Below are positions 6,001 to 18,000 of a DNA stretch of 64,000 nt, in pieces. Origin of the DNA: a virus (Duplodnaviria; Heunggongvirae; Uroviricota; Caudoviricetes); IMG/VR virus record IMGVR_UViG_2541047938_000006. The stretch is one strand, 5' to 3'. The position numbers are program-made. The first letter of the stretch is position 1; the number at the start of each line of letters is the position of its first letter.

Positions 6001-9000
6001 CCTGCGCTGGTATCAGAACCGGGGATTCCCGGATGATATCCCGGATGAACAGGAAAATGATCTGGGCTGCCGGGATGTTCCCTCCTGGCGACGTATTTGT
6101 AAGACTCTCATAAAGAATGATTTCTGGTGCCGAACGCTCTCCTTCAGCCCCAACAAACCCCGGCACTATGAACGTTACCTGCAGCGTATGAATGAAAGGA
6201 GGAAGGAATGGGGAATTCTGTGACACCAGAGGTGGAGGTGCTGAGCAAGATGATTCGACAGTACTTCAGTCAGGAACAATCTGAAGAGAAAACCATACAG
6301 GCCCTGAACCATCTCCGCTGCGTACTCCATGAGATCAGCCCCTTTGCTCAAGAACCAGTGGACTGTGTGCTGTGGGTAAAAGCGGATGAAATTGTCGCTA
6401 ACGATTATAATCCCAATGTCATGGCCCCAAGCGAAAAAAAATTACTGAAACAATCTCTGGAAAAAGACGGTTTTACTCAACCAATTGTTGTTTCGGAAGA
6501 AACAAGCCATTACCTGGTGGTGGATGGTTTTCATAGGCAGTTACTAGGTAGAAGAACAGTTACTGGAAAACGCCTGAAAGGCTGGCTACCAGTAACCTGT
6601 ATTAATCCAGACCGAAAGGGACAAACCTCACGTATTGCCGCGACTATCCGACATAACAGAGCCAGGGGGAAACACCAGATAACCTCAATGTCTGATATTG
6701 TCAGAGATCTTTCACGTCTTGGCTGGACTGATGAACGTATCGGAACAGAACTGGGGATGGACCAGGATGAAGTTCTGAGGTTAAAGCAGATTAGCGGGCT
6801 AACGGAGTTATTTCAGCAGGCAGATTTCAGCCCTGCATGGACTGTTACATAAAGTTAGGTTAGGCCTGTGGAGCCGGGGAATCGGAATTAAACATCTTCC
6901 CTCCCCGGTAAATACAAATAAGGGCTGAACATCATCCCGACTACCTCAGATCACCTAATAATATATCAAGATTATTTTGCGCATTAATGCTATTCGCCAT
7001 TACTGTTGCTGCTTCTGGCAACTTTCCAAGAGCAATAAATATATTCTTAAGGCTGATTGGAATTGATGAACCATGCGGATCGCGCCACTCACCGCAAATT
7101 CTGTGAGTTTCATCACAAAGCCTGAACGCATCCCAACCTCCATATTGACCAAAAATTATGTCCATTGACTCTATTTCTGCGGGCGATAACTCCCCCAGCT
7201 CATCAACAGAAGAAAATGTACGCCACATTTCAACCTTATGATCCGCTACATCAGATATCCATGATTCCCACGGACTGTACTCGTTTTCACTTCCATCCTT
7301 AACCAAAGAATATGTCTGCGATAAAACGGGTCCTTTGTTCATAGAGAAATAATGATCACCACTAATGGGAAAACCATACAACTCCATTGCTTTGCGGTCA
7401 GAGAGATACATCAGCTTAATGAAACGCATAGATCCGCCATGTTTTTTCAGCAAATACGCTGCCATTTACGCAACTTTTTCTTCATTAAACATAAATCGGC
7501 TCTCTGTCTCACATGAAATACTCTTTCTGACTATATGTTAATAGCTCCGGTTATTACAGGTTAATGTGTGTTTATTTCTTAATCAGCCCCGCACTTCCGT
7601 ACGGGGCCATTTCTGTTAATCCACTCCCACTTTTTTGTTGTACTCGCGGTTAAAGCGATCCACGGCAACCTTCATATCCCGCTCTACCGATTTCACCATC
7701 GCCGCCTGCTGCGCCAGACTGAGAGAACTGTCGGCATAAATGGCATCGCGCTGTTTGCGCAAATCCTTCAGTCTCTTCCGGGTATCCTGCATAAGCCCGT
7801 TCATCAACAATTTTCCGTTGTTCTCGTCAATGAACGCCGTTCTTTCTGCACCGGTCAGACTCTTCAGCTCTGCGTGATACTGCGCAACCTCTGTCATCCG
7901 GTCGTACATCTTCTGCTGGTCTGCATACGGCATCACCTCACCCGAAATTTTCCCCAGGAAGGGCACCTGCTGCTCCGGTATATCAATACCGTTCAGCGAT
8001 TTCACCGCCGCATCTGTGGTTTTGGAAATGAAGCGCCCTGTCCCTCCGGAGATATAGTCAATCCAGAATTTCAGCGATTCCGGTGTGATATCCACCGCGC
8101 CGGGACGATACTGGCTGCCACCTGAGAACGCATTCAGCCAGGATGCAAACGCCTTGTACGCCTCAGGCGTTGAACGTCTGCCCAGTTGGCTGTCCGGTTT
8201 CGGTGTGCCAAATGGCATGTTCTCCTGGTAAATCTGCGCCCCCATGAAGTTTTCATTCATGGCAAGGTTCGCAAACGGACGCAGAATGGTCGGCGCTGCA
8301 TTTTTCAGCAATGCCCCGGACAGTGTTTCCGACGTTTCACTGCCCACAGGACTGAATGCCCCCAGGATACCACCGACAACATTACCGGCAGCACGTGAAG
8401 CAGTCAGGTCGCCCGCTGCCACACCTTCAGCAGTATGCCCGAGCAGGAAGAAAACGTTGTACCCGTAAGGCAGAGGAATACTCCAGTACTCTCCGGCCTT
8501 GCCCCCGAACACCGATTTCATAATGACGAGGTTACGCTCTTTCACATGAGACGGCACCTTGTCATACCAGTTAACCCCGTCATCATCCTCCCCCGCAACA
8601 CTGCGGTTAAGCGAGCCAAGCAGATAACCCGCTCCCACAGCTGCAAGCGCGATTTTCTGCGGTACATTGAGATTCTTCCAGCGAAGGCGCTCCGGTAACG
8701 GCCCGTCGCCATTAAGATGTCCGAGCGTTCTCACCAGGTTTGCGGTCCCCTGAATGCTGGCGTTGGCAAACATATACAGCGAGTTCATCAGCGCTCCCTG
8801 CTCACCACGACGGTTAAAGTTCACCGTCATGTTTTTGGCAAGAGATGCCGCCTGCTGGCGTGACAAACCGGCATCACGGGCGTGTTTATAGGCAGAAAGA
8901 CGCAGAGCGTTTTCAACCGCGCCGTTGGCATCCTCGACCAGGTTCAGGAACGAATGCCATGCACCGATACTCTGGCCTTTCCATCCTCCCTTCGCCAGCG

Positions 9001-15000: not shown

Positions 15001-18000
15001 CCAGCAATTCAGGATCGGTTGCCAGCTGCGCGCGCACCTCATCGGCAACACGCTCTTTTGCCAGGTCCATTTTCTGGCGATCAGTAAGCTGTGCGTGCTG
15101 TGGATCTGCATCAATTGACAAAAACGTCTGCTGAAATTTCGGTGACTGCGCCAGCTCAGCGTAATCCGCATTAAGAACAGCATCTGCTGCCGACATTGCA
15201 CTCTGCCCCTGTGCACTGGCTGTGGAATGGGTGATCAGGCCCGCATGGAAGAAATCCGTCATTTTTTTATCGACAGCTTCTGCTGCCAGTGCCGTGGCTC
15301 TTTCCGGCTGCACTCCTGCCGCGATGTATTTTTTCTCCAGCCCGGCGGTCAGCGTTCTTTTCAGTGCGACCTGTCCCACCTTTCTAACCACACCGCCAGC
15401 AACCAGATCAGGTACAAGCGCACCAATCAGGTTTACACCCTTCGTCAGCAAGACCGCAGAATCATCATAGCCTTCACTCATTGGCGTGTTCAGCGCACGA
15501 ACAGCACCCGGCGACATCTGATCTGTCAGCCATTCATCCGAGGCTTTGGCACCATCACTGACTGCCTTGCCTGTGGCCTTCAGACCTTTACCGACAGTAT
15601 CAGTCACCGCGTTTTTCCCTGTTCCATCGGGAATGTTTTTAATCGCATCTCCAACAGAAGGTGGTGCGCCCAGTTCCTTTTGCGTGGAGGAAGGCGGCAT
15701 GTAAACATCCGTCATGAAAGACGACAACCCGGCAAGCGTTTTTACAGGATTATTTACAAGTGCATCACCGAGTCCACGGGCCATTTCCCCTGTTCCCCGG
15801 ACGGACTGGGCGAAACCTTTACCCATTGTTGGCAATACATCGCCCAGGCTGAACGACGTGCTGTGATCAACAGCGTTCTCCGGGTTGTTGAAAAAATCCT
15901 GCCAGTAATTTTCTCCCGGCTGCTTAATGTTCAGACTGCTGCGGTTCTGGTTACCCAATTGCGCTTCAGGGCGCTGCTCATCTGAAAAAGCCATACAGAC
16001 TCCAGTAAAAAAAGCCCGACACGATGGTCGGGCGTAAGTGAACGAGATTAACGGTGAGTGCGTTACTGCCGCGTATTTTTACTTCATCCAGCCTTTGATC
16101 TTCTCGGCAGATGCGGAAGCGCTATAATCCAGCGCCTTTTCATGCTCTGCCTTTTTATCCCTGAGGTGATTCTGGTAATAAATTTCCACCTCCTTTTCAC
16201 GACCAGGTTCCAGCAAAGCAGGCATATTGGCGGCAGTCGCTTTTACAAACTCCTGTTTAACCGGATCGCCCGCCGCCCACGTCTGCCACTTCTGTAAAAG
16301 CTGTTGGGTTTTCTGTTGCTGAATTTTCTGTTGATGCGGTTGTGAACCAGTCGCAGCATAATATTCATCCACCGCAGCCTGTGCATTACCGCCATTCTTG
16401 ATCGCGTCCGCCGCTACGTTGCTGGCCCCCTTCTGAAGCTCTTTCAGAGAAAGTCCCTGCTGCTTCGGCATAAAATAACCATAATTTTTCGATATCTCTG
16501 CAAATTTGCTGCGATCCCTGACCTGAGCGATAGCCTTATCAACGGGTATCGCCAGCACGGTTTGATCATCAGGGTGCGCACTGCCGTATTCTGTTACAGG
16601 TTTATGCGCGGTGGAGCCATCGCTGTATGTGAGATCAAGGCCAATAAGTACGTACCCTTCCTGCTGCGCCGGTACGATACTGCCAATCCTGGCCTCTTTT
16701 ATCGTTTTTTCCCCGGTTGAATCAGTCATGCCAATACGCTGTTGTAGTTCCGGGGCAAACACGCCGGAAAGCACATCGAGATTTTCCGGGGTATTCAGCG
16801 AAGCAATCGCCCTGTCCGGCTTATCATCAAAGATTTTCTGCAGGTTGTTCACGGCCTGACCCGCTTTCGCAGCATAGCCTACCGTTGACATCATCTTAAG
16901 CGGATTGGCGTCCGATAATTTACCGAACAGATGAGAAGCCGCATCATGGTCACCCGCATCAATCGCTTTTCCCAGCGCCGCCATCACAGGCTGATCGCGC
17001 GCCAGCATATCGTTATACTCAAGCCGTCGCTGGTTGTATTTCTGCAACTGGAGTCGTTGCTGTTCCATCCCCAGCGACGCATTCCGGTAATTCTGGTTGG
17101 CGTTAAACTCCCTTTCCTGCAGTGTGTAATTGCGGTCATCAACTTTGGCTCTGTAATCAAAGTTCCGCTGATCAACGTCTTTATTATGTTCAAACTGAGA
17201 CTGCGCAAATTCAAAATCGCGCTCGTTATTTTTCTGTTGCTGAGCAAGCTGTGCTTCTCGCAAACCAAGCTCCTTACGACGGGTCATTGCCTGGTCAACA
17301 GTGCTGAATCCGGCAAGTAACCCCTGTGCAAATCCGCTCATTCACCACTCCTTAAAACAAAGAACCAGCAATGCCGCCAATTACTGCACCAGCAACAGCG
17401 CCAACAGGACCACCAACGGATGCGCCAATAGCCGCCCCCGTACCAATGCCCGTACCGATATTCTGCTTGTTCTGCGCTTTCTGCTGCGCCGCCATCTGTT
17501 TGTTCGCAGCCTCAATTTCTTCACGTCGTCGGTCTGCGTCACTTATTCCCTGTAATGCCTCACGCCGTGACTGATTCGCAATATCCAGTAAACCGTATCC
17601 CATATTTCCTCCTTACGCTGACACCAGTTGTCCGCCAACACTCAGTTGCTGTCTTGCAGGTGCAGAAGCCCCCGTCAGTATGTTCATCTGACGATCCTGC
17701 TCTGCTTCACGGATACCATTTTTCGCGCCAGCAATTGCCAGGGCATTACGTAACCCCAGCGTATTACTGTTGGGATTATCAGGTCGGTTAACGCCATATC
17801 GTGCCATCTGGTTATCCTGCGCCATCTGCGCTGTACGGAGACTGGAAGTGGCAAGGCCGCCCACCCGGGCAAGCTGTGCATTCATCAGGCTGTTGTTCTC
17901 GCCAAGGTCAGCCAGCCTTGCTACACGGGGTAAATATCTGGTGCGCCAGTCGTCGTATTGCTGGCGGGTCAGCGCTGCGGATGTCTGCCAGTCCCCCTGA

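Follow-up and report, generated by a model that had tools for sequence, protein, structure and literature searches.

We analyzed a 64,000-nt stretch of DNA (IMG/VR record IMGVR_UViG_2541047938_000006; hereafter, the window), which holds an Escherichia coli prophage of the 933W/VT2-Sakai/phi24B kind (Sepvirinae), integrated in ynfG and starting at around position 4100. Two neighboring genes on the minus strand were studied: a gene for a giant polyvalent virion protein (7616..15994) and, downstream of it, panA, an open reading frame (ORF) with a Panacea domain (6941..7465; 174 amino acids). An earlier note on this DNA, made from the sequence by a model, had read the giant gene as a single 8.4-kb ORF closing the late operon. 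This reading holds: the gene spans 8379 nt, encodes 2792 amino acids with zero internal stops, and is the last of the operon. It lies downstream of the portal, N4-gp56-type capsid, and tail fiber genes and follows the ORF79 homologue, with the same upstream neighbors as in Sakai and Sp5. The panA product matched the Pfam family SocA_Panacea (PF13274; expectation value (E) = 2.5e-19; 70.7 bits, cut-off 25.7). A 150-nt gap separates it from the giant gene on the same strand, which agrees with the direct succession noted earlier. A scan of positions 6700-8000 gave no promoter and one weak 5-bp stem, leaving the mode of panA transcription unsettled.

The giant protein matched PHROG 616 end to end (residues 1-2792 against 1-2793 of 2793). 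It was collinear with VT2-Sakai orf71 (2806 amino acids) at 93% amino acid identity with 16 inserted residues, and every domain region was 82-100% identical when compared in 50-residue blocks. The full-length match and the collinearity indicate one gene rather than several joined by a frameshift error, which rules out a possibility raised in the earlier note. Judged by collinearity and position, the gene is the orthologue of Sp5 ORF80/ECs1242, VT2-Sakai orf71, and phi24B gp47. Sp5 ORF80, phi24B gp47, and the 933W protein, all in PHROG 616, have the same domains, are collinear over the full length, and are encoded at the same final position of the late operon. The differences from Sp5 and phi24B lie in the N-terminal 250 residues (64-82% identical, the most divergent part relative to Sakai), in the length (2792 versus 2806/2811 amino acids), and in the accessory genes that follow. 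The giant protein is already known: it is orthologous to a protein studied by experiment, and its class has been described. A phmmer search of it against the PDB sequences returned zero matches at E <= 0.1, and PADLOC reported nothing for either the giant or the Panacea protein.

A domain-by-domain hidden Markov model comparison, which the earlier note had proposed, detected LPD5, LPD1, MuF_C, and LPD38 in Pfam, all with scores far beyond the gathering cut-offs, and CLCA_X in NCBIfam. Iyer et al. 2017 (PMC5512222) defined the four Pfam domains as those of phage polyvalent proteins. The N-terminal region (residues 1-440; 14675..15994, minus strand, as are all features of this gene) is Ala/Gly-rich, with a hydrophobic stretch at residues 180-207 and a weak glycine-zipper-like stretch at residues 405-432 (sub-threshold matches). 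It is followed by a segment biased toward Glu, Gln, Pro, Arg, and Ala (residues ~441-900; 13295..14674), which had no domain match and is presumed to be a flexible linker. The "large low-complexity regions" of the earlier note are borne out by this biased part (residues ~440-900) and by the Ala-rich residues 200-500, but the term was overstated, since no single residue exceeds 23% of any 100-residue block. LPD5 (PF18799; E = 3.5e-45) covers residues 1050-1199 (12398..12847). A CLCA_X-type zincin domain at residues 1181-1436 (11687..12454) contains the motif HEWFHSLD, and its C-terminal part corresponds to Pfam LPD1 (residues 1360-1439). A second HExxH-bearing domain (residues ~1472-1667; 10994..11581) had no family match other than a weak one to M76 (E = 0.21). 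MuF_C (residues 1749-1840; 10475..10750) corresponds to PBECR, for which Iyer et al. 2017 predicted an RNase fold; they also described the metallopeptidase as a processing hub in polyvalent proteins (PMC5512222). The C-terminal module (residues 1878-2792; 7619..10363; PHROGs 14770, 10691, and 10089) is common to other giant phage proteins; its ~900 residues resemble their C-termini, including that of the DarB-like PHROG 10089, and it contains LPD38 at residues 2475-2680 (7955-8572; PF18857; E = 3e-48). Pfam searches with eight sub-segments of the protein yielded sub-threshold matches only (Gly-zipper, M76, and others), which were not used as evidence.

The label "polyvalent protein" fits this map, with several LPD and effector domains and zincin motifs encoded amid virion genes, and the literature agrees. 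Like P1 DarB and the MuF-fused proteins, the giant protein is one huge polypeptide with LPD5/LPD1/MuF-C/LPD38, zincin motifs, and a virion-gene setting. Unlike other polyvalent proteins, it has two separate HExxH domains, and methylase, helicase, and ART domains were not detected in it.

Both zincin motifs of the earlier note were recovered. HEWFH occupies residues 1283-1287 (12134-12148) and is followed by Asp1290; HEIIHH, which had been placed at about 11331-11348, occupies residues 1550-1555 (11330-11347; HEIIH alone, 11333-11347). Only 0.04 HExxH motifs are expected from the composition, against the two found. We aligned 55 homologues with identities down to ~32%, with 44-45 sequences counted per column. 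In the first motif, His was conserved in 44/45, Glu in 44/45, the second His in 44/44, and Asp1290 in 44/44 homologues. The second motif was nearly invariant (His 41/45, Glu 42/45, His 43/45). The CLCA_X profile (positions 3-245 of 250) matched residues 1181-1436 with E = 1.5e-44; its score of 152 bits is below the whole-protein cut-off of 260, the match being a domain within a 2792-residue protein. CLCA_X is a zincin family borne by phages and plasmids (Lenart et al. 2013, PMC3650047). The HExxH and the downstream Asp of that family are kept here, with the spacing HExxHxxD as against HExxHxxxD in the paper. By these profile matches, HEWFHSLD is the motif at the active site of CLCA_X and LPD1 is the C-terminal part of CLCA_X.

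We modeled residues 1181-1900 with AlphaFold. The mean predicted local distance difference test (pLDDT) score was 71, with three folded units at ~75-98. HEIIHH lay in a predicted helix, and the second HExxH-bearing domain had a pLDDT of ~70-87. Small zincin-like fold matches were obtained in the model, which would fall on the second HExxH domain. As modeled, the segment has zincin folds. HEWFH and HEIIHH are both outside the MuF_C match. Therefore, the phrase "Muf-C metallopeptidase domain", used in a phi24B preprint (bioRxiv 10.64898/2026.04.10.717836), looks like a mislabel when set against the profile boundaries.

The orthologues have been studied experimentally. Sp5 ORF80 (ECs1242, 2793 amino acids) belongs to a set of nine late genes that are essential; deleting it abolished plaques and lysogenization, and the defect was complemented in trans (Mondal et al. 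2016, PMC5155283). The deletion mutant packaged DNA normally, and its DNA-filled heads were not bound by a tail-fiber antibody (PMC5155283). phi24B gp47 (2811 amino acids) was found in purified virions by proteomics, is missing from the cryo-electron microscopy model (it cannot be seen in the symmetric reconstruction), and has been put forward as an ejection protein carried in the capsid (bioRxiv 10.64898/2026.04.10.717836). The giant protein of the window is most likely packaged, injected, and self-cleaved by its zincin domain(s). Of the "virion-type, injected" description in the earlier note, the packaging has been shown for the phi24B orthologue, whereas we infer the injection, as well as the self-processing and the targets. 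The protein would be packaged within the capsid and leave via the tail at infection. Its zincin domain(s) would cut it into units, and the units released would include MuF-C with the predicted RNase fold, LPD5, and the C-terminal LPD38 module.

The relatives of panA led to a different partner. A tblastn search in phages found full-length homologues with 35-49% identity in Yersinia YeP1-3, Klebsiella ST13-OXA48phi12.5, Pseudomonas Sirocco, a Vibrio phage, E. coli SKA5 and Lys8385Vzw, and a Helicobacter prophage. A gene of ~135 codons directly follows the panA homologue in all nine of these other phages, usually with a 4-nt overlap, and none of the nine records (14-51 kb) had a giant gene near the Panacea gene. 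A single-sequence scan of genome contigs with the Panacea protein gave no relatives; an alignment query was needed. With that query and one genome per species, we obtained 80 panA loci (L008-L087) from many Proteobacteria and other phyla. The same ~135-residue partner family was encoded by 73 of the 78 called downstream ORFs, mostly with the 4-nt overlap, and was present at 76 of the 80 loci by six-frame search. A homologue of the giant protein was found by tblastn at 0 of the 80. Large ORFs near panA in other bacteria were considered as polyvalent proteins and rejected; they encode a MARTX toxin, WD40 and BNR proteins, and a histidine kinase.

The partner family has the invariant residues His22, Asp56, Cys59, and His66. 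It had no Pfam domain (only a spurious ICMT match), none of 221 database clusters gave it a functional name that was informative, and its profile had no match to the PDB sequences. Its AlphaFold model had a pLDDT of 90, and the nearest PDB folds were MazF toxins, then CcdB. The top match, 5co7_A, had a probability of 1.0 and a template modeling (TM) score of 0.51-0.62, with E-values of only ~0.02-0.1. The set of His22, Asp56, Cys59, and His66 is unusual for MazF, and, to judge from the conserved residues, this toxin family may have a metal site or another chemistry.

A validated counterpart exists in Pseudomonas moraviensis. Its PanT toxin (cluster T6) resembles MazF by HHpred and blocks translation, and PanA neutralizes it by direct binding (Kurata et al. 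2022, PMC8832971). The antitoxin gene precedes the toxin gene with a -1/-4 overlap, and PanA is extended by the decapeptide MIFSEQKVAQ (Kurata et al. 2022, PMC8832971). The Pseudomonas members of our locus and phage set start with (V)IFSEQKVAQMAAYFL, in agreement with this decapeptide, and the ancestral N-terminus of the window panA reads MFNEEKVA(Q)MAAYLL. On this shared N-terminal motif, we assigned the window panA to the P. moraviensis PanA-PanT (T6) subfamily. The two have in common the Panacea subfamily (38-57% identity to the members found) and the motif M(I)FSE(E/Q)KVAQMAAY, and the relatives of the window panA share the antitoxin-toxin order, the -1/-4 overlap, and the MazF-like fold of the partner. 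Unlike the P. moraviensis pair, the window panA has lost its toxin gene except for six codons, carries a stop and a deletion in the antitoxin gene, and is situated at the end of a phage late operon.

The damage in the window can be read base by base. The ORF of panA starts at the ancestral Met10. The first nine ancestral codons form a mini-ORF, MFNEEKVA-stop (7466..7492, minus strand), and the minus strand at 7492-7463 reads ATG TTT AAT GAA GAA AAA GTT GCG TAA ATG. The ancestral Gln9 codon, CAA, is TAA in the window, in phage PhiR5_2, and in strain UPEC-245U; it is still CAA in Sakai and the O104:H4-type phage. The window panA has also lost three codons (KLM/KLL) of the conserved first helix, KLMKL(L/M)YLSDR, which are kept in all homologues and in the O104:H4-type remnant. 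The panA stop is followed by 5 nt and then by ATG ATG TTC AGC CCT TAT (6935-6918), the start of the toxin gene. The toxin gene remnant MMFSPY... comprises 15 codons and a stop (6888..6935, minus strand), of which only the first six (6918-6935) have homology to Sakai orf72. The DNA homology with Sakai (window 6918-7015 against L002 4157-4254; 91%) stops exactly at 6918. It is followed by 65 unrelated bases and then, at 6852, by the stop of the convergent ibrB, 88 nt from panA. The end of the homology at 6918 suggests that the ibrAB block replaced the toxin gene. The partner toxin profile had no match in any of the six frames across the window, which includes the giant ORF, and tblastn found none.

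The same position is damaged in other ways in sister prophages. In VT2-Sakai (L002 3986-4254), panA has a 395-nt out-of-frame deletion (window 7016-7410), and orf72 (62 amino acids; N-terminus MMFTPYRRGTI) is the toxin gene internally deleted for its conserved core (hmmsearch E = 1.5e-8). In the O104:H4-type prophage (L090 2346-2621), panA is cut after about codon 41. Other strains have insertion sequences (IS1 or IS3) at the panA site. A full panA is kept in 18 of the 426 complete E. coli genomes that carry the giant gene; ~160 have its first 18-28 codons only, and the rest have none. The alleles of panA differ by four nonsynonymous and 0-1 synonymous substitutions; small as these numbers are, the pattern is as expected without purifying selection. 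By these alignments, decay of the panA-panT cassette at this one prophage position took three different forms, and the toxin has been lost at least twice, by different routes, with the antitoxin apparently eroding. As a separate observation, IS3/IS1 insertions have struck panA and the giant gene's 3' end in E. coli S1-CAM-02-A (L007 5089-6691) and JNEC-KY204 (NZ_AP045180). One such insertion left a 95-residue "SocA family" fragment and a truncated giant gene.

With these results in hand, we consider it probable that a known giant polyvalent protein and an unrelated relic antitoxin of a decayed PanA-PanT system simply lie side by side. A PanA-PanT type II cassette would once have been a moron after the late operon. 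Its cognate ~135-residue MazF-fold toxin would have been lost when the ibrAB block replaced the toxin gene from codon 7 onward. Afterwards, panA would have gained the stop at codon 9 and the three-codon deletion, and it may now be drifting. Beyond probable read-through transcription, there would be no functional link between panA and the giant gene. The Panacea gene is, by sequence comparison, a decayed member of a validated antitoxin subfamily, and the kind of system is not new.

Several points weigh against this joint reading. A Foldseek search of the 720-residue model against the PDB gave nothing significant, and protease or RNase activity is a prediction only for any of the orthologues. 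The identity of the subfamily is argued from the decapeptide, the genus, the gene order, and the predicted fold. The intact ancestral cassette is reconstructed from remnants: when the E. coli complete genomes were searched with the Sakai remnant for an undamaged panA-panT pair behind the giant gene, only the three decayed types appeared among the matches listed. Furthermore, panA is open from Met10, with 98-100% identity among the 18 genomes and the plaque-forming phage PhiR5_2. Re-initiation is favored by the TAA-ATG context, so the shortened PanA may still be made and could have a use. Finally, Mondal et al. 2016 (PMC5155283) interpreted the knockout as a failure of tail assembly, and a role as cargo alone does not account for this.

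This last point leads to the view that tail assembly is the main task of the giant protein, which might be an ATPase (a proposal of Mondal et al. based on a COG1483 match) and not an injected multi-effector. The DNA-filled heads of the Sp5 deletion mutant that lacked tail-fiber antibody binding speak for it. An ATPase domain was absent from the Pfam, NCBIfam, and PHROG scans of the giant protein, the phi24B orthologue is abundant in virions yet not in the resolved tail, and all the recognized domains are those of polyvalent proteins. A portal-anchored internal protein could also be needed for tails to attach, so the phenotype of the knockout is compatible with both views. We regard a chiefly tail-assembly role as unlikely.

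For panA, the orphan antitoxin might be kept for its own use, as an anti-addiction or anti-defense decoy against T6/MazF-type PanT of the host or of rival prophages. The near-identity of the open reading frame in the 18 genomes and PhiR5_2 would agree with such a use. Related panAT pairs occur in the E. coli phages Lys8385Vzw and SKA5, and phages are known to encode antitoxins that counter toxins of the host (T4 Dmd is an example given in Kurata et al. 2022, PMC8832971). Against it stand the ratio of four nonsynonymous to 0-1 synonymous differences, the loss of the first nine codons and of three codons of the most conserved helix, and the repeated deletion or IS disruption of panA in sister prophages. 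The window PanA also has only 35% identity to the E. coli phage PanAs that it would need to mimic. We therefore hold retention as a decoy to be improbable. In more general terms, continued translation of the shortened PanA, with some independent use, is similarly doubtful. Still further down, we give little credence to a truncated PanA that is made by TAA-ATG re-initiation in late transcription and has been co-opted, either as a decoy against MazF-type PanT or as a silencer of the RNase-fold domain of the giant protein until packaging. If true, a subset of the Sepvirinae would bear an antitoxin that stands alone and serves a new role.

The earlier note had proposed, as inference only, that the Panacea protein may be an antidote to a toxic activity of the giant protein in the lysogen or producer cell, for which we take its MuF-C RNase-fold domain or its zincin domain as examples; this is very improbable, since the adjacency on one strand with no convincing promoter or terminator between the genes, the presence of a predicted RNase-fold domain, and the many unrelated toxin folds that Panacea domains neutralize are outweighed by the 18/426 and 0/80 co-occurrence, the MazF-fold partner whose remnant adjoins panA, the nonsense codon and deletion in panA itself, and the infectivity of Sp5 and phi24B, whose giant proteins are ~93% identical with the same domains (the state of panA being known here for Sp5 alone, which has only a disrupted remnant). 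Sp5 infects with a disrupted panA, and the giant domains are 82-100% identical with or without a Panacea gene; an antidote relation is thus unsupported, and the co-occurrence counts appear largely to refute it. A domain swap in the giant protein was also considered as the reason for Panacea retention and was rejected on the collinearity with Sakai across all the domain regions.

On the preferred reading of a known giant protein beside a relic antitoxin, the adjacency to a Panacea gene is no evidence that the giant Shiga toxin (Stx) phage protein is toxic or needs an antidote. The domain map becomes clearer for a protein that is essential in the commonest Stx-converting phages, with two conserved zincin-type sites outside the RNase-fold MuF-C. 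The decay of panA-panT would offer a small example of the erosion of a toxin-antitoxin moron following toxin loss.

The 9.3-kb stretch around the giant and Panacea genes is 100% identical in E. coli SW070917 and 93-96% identical to 186 phage records, mostly of Stx-converting phages. On the identical chromosome, the Prokaryotic Genome Annotation Pipeline annotated the portal, the N4-gp56-type capsid, tail fibers, lom, hok, and several hypothetical genes on the minus strand, followed by an "LPD38 domain-containing protein" and then a "Panacea domain-containing protein". In the window, the essential Sp5 ORF79 has an intact 420-codon ORF as its homologue (16079-17341, minus strand), without a family match in Pfam or NCBIfam; this homologue is annotated as frameshifted in the otherwise near-identical SW070917.

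At the end of the prophage, the opposite strand carries the ibrA/ibrB-like pair and antirepressor genes. The pair (4997-6852, plus strand) encodes a PAPS-reductase-like protein of 408 amino acids and a ParB-like protein of 214 amino acids and is convergent with panA; IbrA is weakly similar to BrxP (E = 1.6e-7) and DndC (E = 4.5e-5). Relative to SW070917 (L001 17104-17577), the window is missing ~475 bp that belong to a partial duplication of antA. The host flank at 56-3625 holds the 3' part of ynfE (56-1141) and ynfF (1199-3625), followed by a truncated 4Fe-4S gene. As in Sakai, the late region holds a hok/gef-family toxin gene (~19269-19409, minus strand) and a lom/ail outer-membrane protein gene (19643-20380, minus strand). 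The tail-fiber region at 25511-28675 is unmatched or 93% identical to SW070917, with flanks at 99%; by this comparison, it is a swapped host-range cassette.

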